Origin: a virus
Taxonomy: Duplodnaviria > Heunggongvirae > Uroviricota > Caudoviricetes
Strand: one strand, 5' to 3'
Length of the DNA: 9,976 bases
Virus record (IMG/VR): IMGVR_UViG_2778260993_000012
Shown here: positions 1 to 9,631 of the stretch, piece after piece
Numbering within the stretch: the stretch's first letter is position 1
Layout of the letters: each line of letters opens with the position of its first letter
Notes under the pieces: generated by a model
Seen by the model: the letters and a program-made list of their open reading frames with translations, nothing else
Told to the model about the DNA's origin: nothing
The model's database searches: none
Made by a program: the position numbers and the translations under genes

Positions 1-74
1 CCCGTAACGCCTCTGCCACGCGCGTAACGTGACAGGGATTAAGGGTAAACTAACTGATTTTACAAGTTTTTATT

Positions 75-1361
75 TTACCCCACTTTCTTATGGGGCATAC
101 ATGGGACACTTTCAGATAGTCTTTTGTTAAGGAGTTCTATCTGTTCGTGATTGTTGTCTTTCATCCATGCTCCGTAAACATTGAATACCATTTGTGCGTT
201 TGTGTGGCCCATCTGGCTTGCGATAAAACTAGGATTAGCTCCAGCGGCAAGTGACCAGCATGCATAAGTATGCCTGGATTGGTACGATTTTCTGTGTCTC
301 AGACCTGCGCGTTTTAAGATACTTGTCCATGACTCCCTGATGGAGTCAACTTTGTAGTGAGGTCCAGACAACTGCTGCTGTTTTATTACCTGAGGGCTAA
401 AAACAAAAGTACATTTATGCACAGCAGTTCTCCCATATTCCCTCTGCTTTACCTCTACAGAATGTTGCTTTCCAAGCATGGTCATTTCCGCCTGGCTTTT
501 AAGAGCATCAATAGCTGGTTGAACCAGATGAATTGTCCTTCCGGTGCCAGCATCGGTTTTTGGTGGAGTGAATTCGCCAAGTTTTGTATAATTTCTACGG
601 ATGGTTATAGTCCTTGCTTTAAGGTCTATATCTTCCCATGCCAGCGATACCAACTCCCCGTGACGAATACCCGTGTATACAGCGAGAATCCACAGGTTTT
701 TTGTTTGTTGATGACGGCAAGCCTCAATAAAACGAATAAATTCGTCACGGGTGAGAGGATCTGGTTTTACCTTGGACTTTTTTAAGGGAGCCAGACCGTT
801 AAATGGGTTTCCTGAGGTATAACCATTATCTGTTGCAAATTGAAACATTCCAGCTATGGTTGTCATATAGTAGTTTACCGTGACCACTGAGCGCCCTTTT
901 ATGGAAGAAGTCTTTCCATTAGAAAGCTTTTGGTAACCGGTCAACAAATCTCTCCTTACGAAAAGTAAATCCTCTTTTGTTATGGATGAAACCAGTTTTT
1001 TTTCACCTAACATTGGTAACATGTTTTTAATTACTGACTGGTAACGGTTAAGTGCATTCGCACAAATCTCAATTTTCTTAAGGTCCAACCATTTTTCCGA
1101 AAGTGCCTTAACGGTTATCTCTCTTTTTCCCAGACCAAAGTGTTTCAGGTTAGGGGAATTAGGGAACTGCGCGGCGTAGTCGAAACTCCCCATTCTGATT
1201 GCAAAACAAACTGAAGTGCGAAGCTCACCAGCGATCTTCCGGTTTTTGGCGGTGTCAGGAACACCGAGGTTTTCTCTGACACGTTTGCCATTATAGTGAA
1301 ACCATATACGGAGTGATCCTCCATGGTTTTCAACGCCTGTCGGGTATGATGCGTTACTCAT
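75..1361 (-). CDS. int: Phage integrase, tyrosine recombinase of the lambda family (428 aa)
   Basis: Complete ORF. The N-terminus (SLRIWFHYNGKRVRENLG) looks like an arm-type DNA-binding domain. The C-terminal catalytic region has the conserved Arg (TGIRHGEL), the His/Arg box (SRHTYA) and a terminal Tyr region (HTNAQMVFNVYGAW). GGGAGG ribosome-binding site 6 nt upstream of the ATG at 1361. Sits at the end of the element next to an excisionase, as in lambda. Confidence 0.9.
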   Translation of the reverse strand: MSNASYPTGVENHGGSLRIWFHYNGKRVRENLGVPDTAKNRKIAGELRTSVCFAIRMGSFDYAAQFPNSPNLKHFGLGKREITVKALSEKWLDLKKIEICANALNRYQSVIKNMLPMLGEKKLVSSITKEDLLFVRRDLLTGYQKLSNGKTSSIKGRSVVTVNYYMTTIAGMFQFATDNGYTSGNPFNGLAPLKKSKVKPDPLTRDEFIRFIEACRHQQTKNLWILAVYTGIRHGELVSLAWEDIDLKARTITIRRNYTKLGEFTPPKTDAGTGRTIHLVQPAIDALKSQAEMTMLGKQHSVEVKQREYGRTAVHKCTFVFSPQVIKQQQLSGPHYKVDSIRESWTSILKRAGLRHRKSYQSRHTYACWSLAAGANPSFIASQMGHTNAQMVFNVYGAWMKDNNHEQIELLNKRLSESVPCMPHKKVG

Positions 1362-1394: not shown

Positions 1395-1649
1395 TTAACC
1401 GGAACTTGCATTTTTGGCACCTGGTTGTTTCTGGTTTTCGATCCATCGCATAATTTCTTCGATGTTGTACAGGCATTCACTGTAATGCCCCGGCTCGCCT
1501 TCTACAGCGTAATGGCGGTATTCTTTTCCCTGCATCCATGACTTTCTTCTGGCCCGCTCGATGGTGCCAGGCTTGAGCCCTGTTGATGCAATGAGGACTC
1601 TCTCCGTACACCATTTGCTCGGGGTTATCTGATAGATGATTGTCTGCAT
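1395..1649 (-). CDS. xis: Excisionase-like protein (Xis / recombination directionality factor), 84 aa
   Basis: Small ORF directly upstream of int on the same strand. The W...P...R...GKEY pattern resembles lambda Xis (WNARQRRP...GREYLFHESAV). AGGAG ribosome-binding site 6 nt before the ATG at 1649. Family assigned from motif and position only. Confidence 0.65.
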   Translation of the reverse strand: MQTIIYQITPSKWCTERVLIASTGLKPGTIERARRKSWMQGKEYRHYAVEGEPGHYSECLYNIEEIMRWIENQKQPGAKNASSG

Positions 1650-1805
1650 GCCAAGCTCCTAAAACGTTTATCCGCGGCAGTGGCACCACACTTCAAACAT
1701 TCGTCTCACAATTTCGCGACAGTAGAAACCGTCAACATCTCGCGTCAGGTCATAGCGACTGCCATAACGCTGGTGGACCCATAGTTCAAATGCTTTATTC
1801 ACTCT

Positions 1806-2048
1806 TCACTTCCTTTTCATGGCGCGTAATTTTTTCAGGTGAGCTTCCTGCTCTGTTTCTGCCAGTATTTGTCGGTATTCCTGGTGATCAATATGTTCAA
1901 ACTGGTTGTTGAATTCACTGATGCGTACTCGACCGGAGTGTCCGTCCATGCGTCGAAAGAACACTGAGTGCTCAGTGCTGCGAGTAATCACCACAGGGTA
2001 TCCGGTCCTGTCCGTGTATATTTGCCCGCGTTGAATAAGTGTGAACAT
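1806..2048 (-). CDS. Small conserved phage protein (80 aa), possibly DUF4222-like
   Basis: ORF from the ATG at 2048 (the track's longer version begins at a TTG at 2081). The N-terminus MFTLIQRGQIYTDRTGYPVVITR resembles small proteins found next to xis in enterobacterial prophages. Family name is tentative. Confidence 0.5.
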   Translation of the reverse strand: MFTLIQRGQIYTDRTGYPVVITRSTEHSVFFRRMDGHSGRVRISEFNNQFEHIDHQEYRQILAETEQEAHLKKLRAMKRK

Positions 2049-2052
2049 GTGG

Positions 2053-2136
2053 TTATCCCCAGCGGCAAATCGCAAAAACAATCAGCGCGATCGACATTGC
2101 AACACCAACAATTGCAAATGCATCAGGCCAGGTCAT
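2053..2136 (-). CDS. Unlisted 27-aa hydrophobic peptide, predicted single transmembrane helix (MTWPDAFAIVGVAMSIALIVFAICRWG)
   Basis: Not in the ORF track because it is below the length cutoff. The ATG at 2136..2134 overlaps the TGA stop of the upstream gene (ATGA junction). A strong ribosome-binding site, AGGAGGTGA, lies 5-6 nt upstream, inside the end of the preceding gene. Stop TAA at 2055..2053, 4 nt before the next ATG. An 18-residue hydrophobic core is typical of small membrane peptides. Confidence 0.4.
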   Translation of the reverse strand: MTWPDAFAIVGVAMSIALIVFAICRWG

Positions 2137-2897
2137 TGATTCACCTCCTGCGGCGGCTCTGGTAGCTGCATCCAGAACAAGGCGTTCCCTAACCACGATA
2201 AAGTGCCATCGCTCAACTCCACGTATTCCCCTTGCACCTGTCCTGCCATATACTCACCGTGCTTTGAATAAATTAAAATCCAATCATCTTGAGCGGGCAT
2301 TCGCTCACTACAGCTTATCCAACCATCCGGAGTTACCGGAGAGTTGCCAGACAGTGCGTTCTGCAATCGTTCCAGCTTAACGTATTCCTGAACCCTGTTT
2401 CCGTCGCACGCCTGAAGCCATTGCACAGCCTTTTGCGCATCAGTGTGAAAGGCACAAGTGCGACCGTCATCAAATTGCATTTCGTAGAGGTCAGCAACCT
2501 GTTTAAACTGCGTTTGTGGCAACTTGTAAGCCCGGCTTGCAGGTACGGCACTATAGAGCATGGCAGCGCGGCAGGCATTCCAGCCTGTAGCGTATGCAGC
2601 CGCTTTGCTGCTGCCTTCAACTGGCGTATCCTGCCAATACATTTCTTCCGGCACTACCGGCGCTGGAGGGACAGTGTAAAGCTGGTGCGTTCCATCAGGC
2701 AGCGAGTGACCTACATACTCACCGAACCCGTCAACACACATGCTCCCATCTTCAATAATGCATGACGCTACTGGCTCCGCTTCCAGCGATGCCAGAGCAA
2801 TTTCATAAGCCCGGCGCTCAATATTGTCTCGAACGTCCAGGCTGCCTATACGCTCTTTGATTTTTTTAATCAGTTCTTTGTCGGTGAACGTTGTCAT
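2133..2897 (-). CDS. Phage accessory protein with C-terminal DUF551-type domain (254 aa)
   Basis: Complete ORF with an AAGGA ribosome-binding site 7 nt upstream of the ATG at 2897. The C-terminus (GWISCSERMPAQDDWILIY...FWMQLPEPPQ) matches the DUF551 signature (W-I-S...E-R-L/M-P ... W-M-x-L-P-E-P-P) as I remember it. Confidence 0.7.
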   Translation of the reverse strand: MTTFTDKELIKKIKERIGSLDVRDNIERRAYEIALASLEAEPVASCIIEDGSMCVDGFGEYVGHSLPDGTHQLYTVPPAPVVPEEMYWQDTPVEGSSKAAAYATGWNACRAAMLYSAVPASRAYKLPQTQFKQVADLYEMQFDDGRTCAFHTDAQKAVQWLQACDGNRVQEYVKLERLQNALSGNSPVTPDGWISCSERMPAQDDWILIYSKHGEYMAGQVQGEYVELSDGTLSWLGNALFWMQLPEPPQEVNQ

Positions 2898-2907
2898 GTG
2901 TTAGTCC

Positions 2908-3171
2908 TTATCCTGCTGTGCTTTCAACTGATGAGGGGAATAAAATCTCTTCATCAAATCCGGCATTCATATCATGGACAGCAACACACCAATCCATCGA
3001 CGAACGATTATCAAGAGCCTCCATGATTTCATCCATGCGGCGTAGGTCATACAGGTGAATGCTTTTATCGCCAATGGTGTAAAAACCAATTTTTTTCGGT
3101 GATGGACAGCGATCAAGAACGTTCTGTAATTCATTCAACCATGCCCGTTCTTTTTTTGTTAAAGTTGCCAT
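2908..3171 (-). CDS. Small phage protein, 87 aa, in the position of lambda ea8.5; function unknown
   Basis: ATG at 3171 (MATLTKKERAWLNELQ...) with a GGAGAG ribosome-binding site upstream. The start sits 1 nt past the stop of the upstream Ea22-like gene. The track's 97-aa version adds 10 residues that overlap that gene. Confidence 0.55.
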   Translation of the reverse strand: MATLTKKERAWLNELQNVLDRCPSPKKIGFYTIGDKSIHLYDLRRMDEIMEALDNRSSMDWCVAVHDMNAGFDEEILFPSSVESTAG

Positions 3172-3958: not shown

Positions 3959-4193
3959 TGGTGCCTCCTTTACGGATCTGCGCTGCGATGCACGAAAAAA
4001 AAGACTCTCGCGTATGACAGTTAAGAGCTGGTGCGAACGCCGCGTTAAGAACGGCGGCATCACAGCCGTCATCAATATAGAGCGCAATTTTTTTCTCCAG
4101 GCGCGCTTTGGCTTCCTGCAACTGCATACCCCGGCACGCACGCGGGATATACTCAGCAATTTGAGCGATAGATTTTTCGTTCTGTTTAAACAT
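3945..4193 (-). CDS. Hypothetical small phage protein, 82 aa
   Basis: ATG at 4193 with a GAGGTGA ribosome-binding site 4 nt upstream. Its 3' end overlaps the Ea22-like GTG start by 14 nt and its 5' end overlaps the upstream gene's stop by 8 nt. Confidence 0.5.
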   Translation of the reverse strand: MFKQNEKSIAQIAEYIPRACRGMQLQEAKARLEKKIALYIDDGCDAAVLNAAFAPALNCHTRESFFSCIAAQIRKGGTSERD

Positions 4194-4389
4194 GCTTCAC
4201 CTCGATAGGCTTGATGGTATCGATCAGCAGTCGGCGGCGAGTATTTTCTGCAAAGTGGCGGCGTCCGGTTTCTTTGTGGTAAAATTCGTTTTTTCCGACG
4301 ACCCACATCCGCTTTGTCTGGTGCAGTTTTTTTACCTGCGGACCGTCTCGGGTGATAACAATTCCTGTATGAGTTTTTATCACGCTCAT
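4186..4389 (-). CDS. Hypothetical small basic phage protein, 67 aa
   Basis: ATG at 4389 overlaps the upstream stop in an ATGA junction. GGAG lies upstream. In the position of lambda orf61/orf63. No family recognised. Confidence 0.5.
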   Translation of the reverse strand: MSVIKTHTGIVITRDGPQVKKLHQTKRMWVVGKNEFYHKETGRRHFAENTRRRLLIDTIKPIEVKHV

Positions 4390-4748
4390 TTTTTATTCTC
4401 CGGTGCTTTCGGCATTACTGCCCAGTGAGTGATATTGACGTTTTCAAGGTCCCCGACCTGAAATGTCCACTGCCATTCTCCGGTTTCTTTTTGTCCCCAG
4501 GTGTACCAGAGAGAACGCCAGCCAATTAGCCAGCCTTCTCCGTTAGCATCAAATAACAGAACACTTTCATTTGCTGGCGGCAGTTCAGCTGACACTGGTA
4601 TTATTTTGTTTTCCAGTGCCGCACATTTAGCTTCAAGCGCATCGAATTTACGTACCAGGTACTCAGCATTTGTTTCATTCACTTTCAGATCTCGTGGTAC
4701 ACATTTCCCGCGAAGAAACCCTTCCATTTCGAAAACATTCATGCGCAT
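4386..4748 (-). CDS. DUF551-type phage protein, about 118-120 aa, coiled-coil N-terminus
   Basis: The C-terminus (AELPPANESVLLFDANGEGWLIGW...ITHWAVMPKAPE) resembles DUF551. Start is either ATG 4748 or ATG 4742; the latter forms an ATGA overlap with the upstream stop. Same length as E. coli K-12 YfdS (120 aa, from memory). Confidence 0.6.
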   Translation of the reverse strand: MRMNVFEMEGFLRGKCVPRDLKVNETNAEYLVRKFDALEAKCAALENKIIPVSAELPPANESVLLFDANGEGWLIGWRSLWYTWGQKETGEWQWTFQVGDLENVNITHWAVMPKAPENKK

Positions 4749-7434: not shown

Positions 7435-8127
7435 TTAATTGTGTCGCTTAAGGGTTTGTGACTGACTGATTAAGACCTTCCCAAAGACCATAAACCGGTG
7501 TTCGTTTTCGCTGGTAATTCCCCATTCACGGTAAATCTGGTTATCAGAAATCACCAGTAGTTTGTCAGGTATCATTTGCAGTCGTTTGACATAAATTTTA
7601 TCATCAAAACCAAACACATAGATACCATCCCCATCAAACTGATTGATACTGATATCAACGAAGATGAGATCTCCTGGCTCAATGGTTGGACACATACTGT
7701 CCCCACGAACGTTGATAACTTTAATGTGATTGGCTGGTCGTCCTCCAAACATCGATACAGCATTATCAGTTATGTATTCAATGGCATGAATCACATCAAT
7801 GACATCACCGCCCTGGATAAGGCCATTTCCCGCACTGGCACTGACATCCAGCATTTCAATACGGAATACATCCTTCACCTGCGCAACATCCTCACCAGTA
7901 CTGTTTTTACATACAGTATTACTTTTGAAGTCTGAGGTAAAGAGATCTGCAATATCAACACCTAAGCTCCTGGCAATATTACTCAGGGCTTGTTCAGTGA
8001 ATTGTTTCTGCTTACCTGTTTCCAGGCGTGAGATATTCGCCGCATCCACTCCTATTGCTTCAGCGAGATCGGCGATTTTCATGTTCTTCGCCTGGCGAAG
8101 TTGTCTGACTCGATTTCCTATGTTCAT
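7435..8127 (-). CDS. cI-type phage repressor: N-terminal helix-turn-helix (XRE) domain plus C-terminal S24 (LexA-like) autopeptidase domain, 230 aa
   Basis: The N-terminus (VRQLRQAKNMKIADLAEAIGVDAANISRLETGKQ) is a helix-turn-helix. An Ala-Gly cleavage site lies in SASAGNG. RGDSMCPTIEPGDLIFVD carries the catalytic Ser, and VKRL the likely Lys. Divergent from a Cro-like gene. No Shine-Dalgarno sequence before the ATG. Confidence 0.9.
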   Translation of the reverse strand: MNIGNRVRQLRQAKNMKIADLAEAIGVDAANISRLETGKQKQFTEQALSNIARSLGVDIADLFTSDFKSNTVCKNSTGEDVAQVKDVFRIEMLDVSASAGNGLIQGGDVIDVIHAIEYITDNAVSMFGGRPANHIKVINVRGDSMCPTIEPGDLIFVDISINQFDGDGIYVFGFDDKIYVKRLQMIPDKLLVISDNQIYREWGITSENEHRFMVFGKVLISQSQTLKRHN

Positions 8128-9354: not shown

Positions 9355-9439
9355 TTCTGCAATTCCGGGACGTTACACTGTTCAGGCACCTTATAAAACG
9401 GGTGCCGGGATTGGCGTCCTGAAATTGATTACTGAGCAT

Positions 9440-9461
9440 AACCGCGCTCATGCGGTTTTTT
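9440..9461 (+). terminator. Terminator-like hairpin with U-tract (AACCGC-GCTCAT-GCGGTT followed by TTTT)
   Basis: 6-bp stem, 6-nt loop and a T6 run on the plus strand. Weak stem. It lies between the candidate small ORF and the Rha-like gene, and inside the open +2 frame. Confidence 0.3.
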
Positions 9462-9631
9462 CGTGTCATGAGCATTACTACGCCCAAATTATGGTGGGGC
9501 GTACAGGGCCGACTTCGGTCGGGCCGGGTTCGGTAGTCTCCGGTAACGCCAACCCTGTACGTCTCACCACCTCTGTGATTGGCGTCCCATGTGGTGAGTT
9601 TTCTAAAAAACTGACTACCGGGGCTGTCACT

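Follow-up and report, generated by a model that had tools for sequence, protein, structure and literature searches.

A small open reading frame of Escherichia and Shigella prophages very probably encodes a single-helix membrane microprotein

The DNA analysed here (the window) comprises 9,976 nucleotides of the Caudoviricetes record IMGVR_UViG_2778260993_000012 from IMG/VR and is the left arm of a lambdoid prophage. On its minus strand, between a gene for a DUF551-domain protein and a gene for a DUF4222 protein, lies a small open reading frame (ORF) of 27 codons. On sequence comparison, this ORF is very probably a genuine gene that encodes a membrane microprotein. The fuller explanation favoured here is that of a genuine microprotein gene, expressed early, whose product would act through helix packing with a membrane partner; this is considered probable, with somewhat less confidence than the existence of the gene. 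The family is new and uncharacterised; its kind, that of small single-pass membrane proteins and phage accessory genes, is well known.

Start signals and gene packing

The initial annotation of this DNA had reported an ORF whose ATG overlaps the TGA of the upstream gene as ATGA, with a near-consensus ribosome-binding site 5-6 nt upstream and an end 4 nt before the next gene. The minus strand, which that annotation left unstated, reads ...CCGCCGC AGGAGG TGAATCA ATG ACC TGG CCT GAT ... CGC TGG GGA TAA CCAC ATG TTC.... The ATG at 2136-2134 does overlap the DUF551 TGA at 2135-2133, within the sequence CAATGACC. The stop codon (TAA, 2055-2053) is likewise followed, after the four nucleotides CCAC, by the DUF4222 ATG at 2048. 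A ribosome-binding site is present as the Shine-Dalgarno (SD) sequence AGGAGG (2149-2144), with a spacer of 7 nt to the ATG; the distance given for it needs a minor correction, since 4 nt rather than 5-6 separate the end of the longer string AGGAGGTGA from the ATG. In this window, the DUF551 gene is proposed to be the source of terminating ribosomes for the small ORF.

The ORF coincides with a gap in a published annotation. A segment of 1251 nt of the window (1700-2950) is 99.8% identical to a prophage at mlrA in E. coli STEC1585 (NZ_CP129252, locus L001), where the DUF551 protein is annotated as WP_115785322.1. From xisR to yfdR in this RefSeq record, genes overlap or lie at most 18 nt apart, with a lone exception: an unannotated gap of 84 nt, left by the Prokaryotic Genome Annotation Pipeline (PGAP), that is exactly the small ORF. 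The description of the ORF as unlisted is therefore accurate. A consensus scan of the window, a kind of scan that provides weak evidence, detects neither a sigma-70-like promoter nor an intrinsic terminator in the vicinity of the ORF, whichever strand is read. Because of the tight packing and the absence of a nearby predicted promoter or terminator, the small ORF has the appearance of a regular gene of the early-left operon. Brief overlaps of stop and start are typical there, as at the 67-aa ORF that follows a second, shorter DUF551 gene.

The frame is conserved as a coding sequence

Two samples of homologous loci were compared. The first, chosen by peptide similarity, contains 95 copies with 38 distinct DNA sequences and 18 distinct peptides. 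All but one of these copies (94/95) are intact, with 27 or 28 codons, and 18 different DNA sequences encode the identical commonest peptide, MTWPEAFTTVGIAMAVALVVYSICRWG. Mean column entropy at codon positions 1/2/3 is 0.26/0.16/0.71. The Nei-Gojobori ratio of nonsynonymous to synonymous differences per site (pN/pS) is 0.25 in the ORF frame, versus 1.2 and 2.1 in the other sense frames, both of which contain stops in 37/37 sequences.

The second sample comprises 120 loci anchored solely on 23 nt at the 3' end, with the unselected 5' part examined. Here, 110/120 loci have an intact ATG ORF and 2/120 a GTG start behind a strong SD sequence, so that 112/120 retain a start, an open frame and a stop. 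Across codons 2-19, pN/pS is 0.31 (bootstrap 95% confidence interval 0.15-0.55), as compared to 1.06 and 2.15 in the other frames. The initial claim of a real coding ORF is thus upheld by both samples, with pN/pS of 0.25-0.31. On these substitution patterns, the peptide sequence is under purifying selection; the selection is real, though not absolute.

One decayed form recurs. A deletion of 1 nt (ATGACCTGG to ATGAC-TGG) frameshifts the small ORF in L090, L098, L151 and L170 (about nt 1501-1584 in each); a complete E. coli genome is among these loci, and their downstream alleles are of at least two kinds. Either the shared deletion has arisen repeatedly, or it marks a pseudogene allele that recombination has spread.

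A mosaic module that carries its own translation signals

Comparison of the window with loci that have different neighbours locates the edges of the conserved unit. By blastn, homology spans exactly ORF nt 0..83 for L005, L010, L018 and L025, nt 0..79 for L058, and nt -15..83 for phage 933W. The block itself is about 79-81% identical, as against 92-94% for other mosaic blocks in the vicinity, which lie at differing distances. As aligned, the module borders coincide with the ORF, and the SD sequence plus ORF moves among Escherichia and Shigella phages as a self-contained mosaic unit. Such coincidence of a homology block with ORF borders offers a way to separate real micro-genes from chance ORFs in mosaic phage genomes.

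Clustering of the flanks separates at least six unrelated upstream gene ends and 13 downstream contexts. The upstream ends are DUF551 (...PEPPQEVNQ*), 933W L0139 (...IEQKVNQ*), phage Av-05 (...KKKGMNQ*), an Ea22-like gene (...LPLENNK*), and two further ends, ...GLISVEDILR* and ...GLIGAEDSLR*. Downstream contexts include the DUF4222 gene, hok/sok loci, GC-rich hairpins right after the stop, and convergent genes. Despite these differing surroundings, 94 of 98 non-redundant contexts have a GGAG/GAGG core at -16..-5, the SD forms being CAGGAGGTGAATCA, GGAGGATATTTTACG, TGGAGAACAATAA and GAGGAGGGGGATAA. The ATGA start is found in 96/98, a count that tests the four bases and not the openness of the upstream gene; in individually inspected loci, an upstream gene ending at the TGA was confirmed directly. 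Residue 2 is T, S, N or I, and its codon is nearly always A-initial, with Ser encoded as AGY, which preserves the upstream TGA.

These data support the coupling to an upstream gene that had been proposed initially, and remove its specificity for DUF551. The initial annotation had also raised the possibility that the ribosome-binding site is kept merely as the PEPPQEV codons of the DUF551 gene. Instead, the SD sequence is retained at 933W L0139, in Av-05, at the Ea22-like genes and in L093/L094. In the latter pair, a stop already ends the DUF551 frame 10 codons before this point and CGCCGCAGGAGGTGAATCA-ATG is nevertheless kept, which argues that the SD sequence is not maintained merely for these codons. 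In the same two loci (1462-1584), the small-ORF frame reaches an upstream ATG that itself overlaps the TGA of the preceding gene (GAATGAAAATC). These nested starts would give products of 40 aa or 27 aa, and the 40-aa form is annotated on more than 1000 contigs.

In the commonest context (L003, which is 933W, and L005, L098, L101 and L102), a hok/sok-type locus, which is hokW/sokW in 933W, follows about 90-110 nt after the end of the microprotein gene. At this spacing, the promoter region of the hok mRNA must abut or overlap the 3' end of the ORF.

The peptide and its predicted transmembrane helix

The best 19-residue Kyte-Doolittle mean of the window peptide is 2.75, and the Hessa-scale sum over the 19 residues is -2.62 kcal/mol. 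Of the 60 window ORFs that start with ATG and have 20-45 codons, the small ORF is by far the most hydrophobic (runner-up, 1.81 by the same Kyte-Doolittle mean). The initial statement that its features are unlikely to arise by chance is borne out by this rank together with the protein-level conservation. Other alleles have 19-residue means of 1.98-2.42, and in all variants the hydrophobic 19-mer between W3 and W26 is retained. On hydrophobicity scales, this supports the single transmembrane helix suggested at the outset.

The family pattern is M-x-W-P-(E/D)-A-F ... G11-x-x-x-(A/S)15 ... C-R-W-G. Among 24 distinct peptides, positions M1, W3, P4, A6, G11, R25 and W26 are invariant, except P4 (23/24), and the window peptide carries every one of them. 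Position 15 is A or S in 24/24 of this first set; in a wider sample, G11 is replaced once (G11R) and a single A15V occurs. An acidic residue 5 stands near the N-terminal end and Arg25 near the C-terminal end, and the tail after the helix consists of three residues, R-W-G.

Profile searches assign the peptide to no family. Pfam, NCBIfam, PADLOC and PHROGs contain no above-threshold match (best PHROG, phrog_35838, E=0.085), and a PDB profile search returns 0 matches. The sub-threshold Pfam matches are chance ones: PTR2, SCIMP, DUF883_C and B12D; neither Hok nor another toxin family appears.

Distribution

The initial annotation had proposed a tblastn search for conservation of the peptide and its frame. 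Against 50,697 phage records, the 27-mer matches 95, at 59-100% identity over near-full length. These records include 933W, VT2-Sakai, Min27, Stx2 (Shiga toxin 2) phages I and II, Shigella phage POCJ13 and the Vequintavirinae phage Av-05. In IMG/VR, a back-translated pattern scan locates at least 492 tblastn-confirmed copies. By blastn, the 84 nt occur in 1508 of 5426 complete E. coli genomes (about 28%), at 2712 places and up to 7 per genome.

In a scan of one genome per species, credible matches are restricted to Escherichia and Shigella. Those in other genera, in Xanthomonas, Acinetobacter and Segatella records, lie on contigs of 369-1780 bp and are probably contamination. Of the K-12 prophages, the three scanned (CPS-53, Qin and Rac) contain no copy, which may explain the lack of a name in K-12 ribosome-profiling and small-protein catalogues.

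Two outlying records are of separate interest. A GC-rich contig of a Pseudobdellovibrionaceae metagenome-assembled genome (L095, 1501-1698) contains a 66-aa ORF whose first 14 residues (MTWPEAFAIVGVAF) match the family, with the remainder differing; this could be a distant relative or a chance match. The second, L005 (PP818812.1, "Actinobacillus phage vB_Apl-pPE4"), has E. coli-type lambdoid accessory genes (Ea22-like, hok family) and a microprotein copy one synonymous base away from the commonest E. coli-type allele. From its sequence, the stated host of this phage looks doubtful.

Contrary evidence and alternative explanations

Several observations weigh against an intact, expressed and helix-packing microprotein. 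First, copies do decay: in the 120-locus sample, two share the same 1-nt frameshift, four have in-frame deletions of 6-12 nt and two have lost the stop, and W3R, P4S/T and F7L recur as fairly common replacements. Of six inspected E. coli matches with the lowest identity, one is frameshifted and one has its ATG changed to ATA; three of the six have changes at otherwise conserved positions (e.g. V10K, R25S/H). Partial decay is expected for an accessory gene that also resides in decaying prophages. Second, the antisense frame that shares wobble positions also has a low pN/pS, 0.28, with stops in 2/37 sequences and no start signals; the low ratio is the expected artefact of the shared wobble positions. 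Third, the helical periodicity of the variable positions is not significant, about 11% of shuffles reaching the same value, so that the proposed packing face is defined by the G-xxx-A/S pattern alone. Finally, the initial annotation had suggested looking in ribosome-profiling data. The part of the enterohaemorrhagic E. coli (EHEC) Sakai and EDL933 ribosome-profiling (Ribo-seq) supplements that could be consulted does not list the ORF; the lysogens were uninduced there. The searchable portions of the supplements of the small-ORF studies Hücker 2017, Neuhaus 2017 and Fesenko 2024 do not list it.

The alternative that survives best, although it is judged unlikely, is a membrane-damaging toxic peptide of type I toxin or holin-like character, which would depolarise or permeabilise the inner membrane on induction or mediate post-segregational killing. 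The type I toxins Ibs, ShoB, DinQ and TisB are small and almost wholly hydrophobic. The microprotein resembles these and Hok/Gef in being short and very hydrophobic, the most so among the short ORFs of the window, and in its commonest context it lies a short way upstream of a hok/sok locus. Type I toxins are translationally silenced, whereas the small ORF has a consensus AGGAGG at optimal spacing and is coupled within an operon. A plus-strand promoter-like site near 2053-2136, an Rfam family over the ORF and a predicted antisense RNA are all absent, and folding is no better than that of shuffles on either strand (z = +1.31, +0.86), the fold in the window being weaker than shuffles. Together with the absence of any Hok or other toxin match in Pfam, and of any match in NCBIfam and PADLOC, these features leave every type I architectural feature examined missing from the small ORF, as read from its sequence. 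The occurrence of up to 7 copies per genome also speaks against a toxin. For a holin, the location between the Ea22/DUF551 genes and xis/int, rather than in a lysis cassette, and a C-terminal tail of just three residues are unfavourable.

If the peptide sequence were irrelevant, the ORF could be retained to keep an 84-nt spacer translated, as a ribosome relay or as a shield against Rho. The stop/start overlap upstream, the 4-nt gap to the next gene and the tight packing of the operon would suit such a role. This explanation is distinctly improbable, given selection at the amino-acid level (pN/pS 0.25-0.31) that keeps the W-P-(E/D)-A-F and R-W-G ends and exchanges hydrophobic for hydrophobic residues between them. 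Moreover, the downstream gene differs among the 13 contexts, and several of these have no relay target, with a GC-rich hairpin or a convergent gene after the ORF.

It is highly improbable that the block is not a gene and that its conservation acts at the nucleotide level, as an RNA element, an antisense-strand gene or recently shared DNA. Opposite-strand ORFs are annotated across the block in POCJ13 and Stx2 phage I, and the low antisense pN/pS could be read in the same direction. Variation is instead concentrated at sense third codon positions, and the block borders are the start and stop of the sense ORF, while antisense ORFs extend into non-homologous flanks and even the best antisense frame is interrupted in some sequences. 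The missing Rfam family and the lack of excess folding on either strand argue against an RNA element. Mere recent sharing is ruled out, since length, start, stop and hydrophobic character are maintained between alleles about 20% apart in DNA sequence.

That the ORF supplies a C-terminal membrane anchor to the upstream protein through programmed frameshifting or read-through, and not a free peptide, is scarcely credible: the frame is open for 20 more codons upstream in the window (a 47-aa GTG ORF) and rare natural in-frame fusions to an Ea22-like coiled-coil protein exist in which the TAA between is lost (P0024, 143 aa; P0027, 206 aa), but these occur on 1-3 contigs each and look like sporadic stop-codon loss, no slippery X XXY YYZ heptamer is present in ...CAGGAGGTGAATCAATGACC before the overlap, and upstream genes are unrelated across contexts, with an own ATG and SD sequence in nearly all.

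Proposed role of the microprotein

The mechanism proposed for a membrane microprotein would likely involve: transcription in the early-left operon; translation by termination and reinitiation; and insertion of a single helix that engages a partner within the bilayer. Along the leftward early operon, the ORF follows the cI-type repressor gene region and precedes xis and int. Transcription would occur on induction or infection, not in the repressed lysogen, as suggested by the lack of a predicted promoter of its own and by its position between the early genes and xis/int. Ribosomes that stop at the DUF551 TGA would then restart at the overlapping ATG, aided by the strong SD sequence.

The product would be a 27-residue single-pass inner-membrane helix, bracketed by the interfacial Trp3 and Trp26. 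The positive-inside rule, applied weakly here, suggests that the N terminus and the acidic residue 5 are outside and that the C terminus and Arg25 are inside. Within the bilayer, the small residues G11, A/S15 and S/A22 may pack against a partner's transmembrane helix, as an analogy with AcrZ, MgrB, MgtS and KdpF would suggest. Bacterial small single-pass membrane regulators include AcrZ (49 aa), MgrB (47 aa), MgtS (31 aa), KdpF (29 aa), CydX (37 aa) and PmrR (29 aa). The microprotein is like these six in its size (at most 50 aa), single helix, near absence of a soluble part and normal SD sequence, and binding of a larger membrane protein serves as the working analogy. It differs from them in having no detectable similarity (Pfam, NCBIfam) and in being phage-borne, mosaic, multicopy and coupled to an upstream gene. 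By this analogy, a partner-binding membrane modulator is a tentative assignment, with somewhat less than an even chance of being correct.

The proposed accessory role would fall during lytic development, e.g. in host takeover or in exclusion of a competing phage. The gene occurs in podovirus-type Stx phages (Sepvirinae), in lambdoid prophages and in one Vequintavirinae phage, Av-05. Vequintavirinae are a subfamily of virulent phages, and presence in Av-05 suggests a role in lytic growth rather than lysogeny. A partner in the host membrane is likelier than a phage one, given the narrow host range and the variable phage backgrounds and neighbours. A bolder version is a portable, host-specific effector: a 27-residue helix, made early in lytic development, that would bind a particular membrane protein of the host and thereby redirect the cell or exclude competing phage; candidate targets would be transporters, proteases, routes of DNA entry and components of division or respiration. 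This version is speculative and, on present evidence, rather unlikely. If true, it would place the microprotein among the smallest phage host-takeover or exclusion factors known; its gene, unannotated in the Shiga-toxin phages 933W and VT2-Sakai, would be one that more than a quarter of E. coli genomes carry.

Known exclusion proteins provide a further comparison. T4 Imm and Sp, HK97 gp15, P22 SieA and lambda/Rac SieB are likewise phage-encoded accessory inner-membrane proteins, and T4 Imm is an early gene of the lytic cycle. In contrast to the microprotein, these are far larger (about 80-200 aa) and show no homology to it. The prophage-type examples use their own promoters in the lysogen, whereas none is predicted for the microprotein by the consensus scan, itself weak evidence.

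The function is directly testable, as an ATG to ATA change removes the start and turns the DUF551 TGA into TAA, leaving the upstream protein unchanged. The family is of moderate interest because it is widespread, present in Stx phages and easily tested. It is found in accessory early regions, including the region from recombination genes to xis (exo-xis in lambda) and related ones; exo-xis-type genes shift the balance of lysis and lysogeny and hence toxin production. No new principle is involved: the class of small membrane proteins with one helix is well established, and thousands of its members are already predicted in large catalogues.

Annotation and literature status

All 12 records inspected (3 RefSeq genomes and 9 phage records, including the clinically relevant 933W and Stx2 converting phage I) omit the ORF. 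The initial remark that such peptides are routinely missed by annotation fits these records, with the caveat that a few GenBank submitters do call the family. Exact 27-mers of other alleles are listed in nr as "bacteriophage protein" or "hypothetical protein" (E. coli O111:H11 CVM9545; FORC28_2400; Q457_08800). For the L093-type allele, the annotated product is a 40-aa "bacteriophage protein / putative prophage protein" (UniRef A0A2Y4Q9C4_SHIFL; WP_290124247.1). Family entries in the databases share 48-100% identity, the W-P-(E/D)-A-(F/I) ... C-R-W-G pattern, the core length and the prophage accessory context; the 40-aa entries differ in starting at the upstream in-frame ATG and not at the ATG served by the SD sequence. 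If the peptide is made, a conserved prophage gene is missing from the RefSeq annotation of about 28% of complete E. coli genomes.

A collection of 15 billion proteins does not contain the peptide of the window itself, and a search with the 47-aa GTG-extended ORF finds two proteins only. An exhaustive phmmer search returns the same family under wrong starts, rare fusions or extensions and low-complexity noise, with no named relative. Clustering of the peptide with 121-aa DUF551 proteins was considered as a sign of fusion and rejected; the clustering is an artefact of partial, mis-framed entries. The motif was not found in the literature, including that on exo-xis, where a modelling paper mentions no transmembrane micro-ORF.

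Prophage setting

The coordinates of the features are collected in Table 1. Other genes of the window are a 44-aa ORF and Ea22-like, YfdR-like and YfdQ-like genes, with a Cro-like ORF and a CII-like gene on the plus strand.

Table 1. Features of the window, with positions counted from its first nucleotide
Feature	Position	Strand	Basis or remark
Small ORF (27 codons + TAA)	2053..2136	minus	product MTWPDAFAIVGVAMSIALIVFAICRWG
ATGA stop/start overlap, DUF551 TGA with small-ORF ATG	2133..2136	minus	read from sequence
Shine-Dalgarno AGGAGG	2144..2149	minus	within final codons of DUF551 gene
Predicted transmembrane helix AFAIVGVAMSIALIVFAIC, codons 6-24	2065..2121	minus	hydrophobicity scales
Upstream gene, 254-aa DUF551-domain (P22 EaA-like) protein	2133..2897	minus	Pfam DUF551 E=2.5e-10, residues 192-250
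Downstream gene, 80-aa DUF4222 protein	1806..2048	minus	Pfam DUF4222 E=4e-16; neighbour particular to this context
Integrase	75..1361	minus	
Rac-type excisionase	1395..1649	minus	
67-aa ORF after second DUF551 gene	4186..4389	minus	start 4 nt before upstream gene's end
Second, shorter DUF551 gene	4386..4748	minus	E=2.7e-4
S24/HTH (helix-turn-helix) repressor	7435..8127	minus	
isrK Hfq-binding RNA RF01394	9386-9462	plus	Rfam, 60 bits
C4 antisense RNA RF01695	9487-9574	plus	Rfam, 82 bits

Downstream of the CII-like gene, the region 9373-9574 (+) contains, besides the two RNA families RF01695 and RF01394, a weak match to the c4 a1b1 target. The RNAs of this region suggest an antisense-controlled antirepressor or immunity module of P1/P7 type or Gifsy type within a lambdoid prophage.

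The segment 1700-2950 of the window is matched over at least 80% of its length in 1 of 5426 complete E. coli genomes, and in part in 2913. On this distribution, the window is a rare mosaic combination built of common modules. In the STEC1585 chromosome (L001, 654-1340), the matching prophage adjoins mlrA (yehV), a classic integration site of Stx phages, which is annotated there as a pseudogene with an internal stop.

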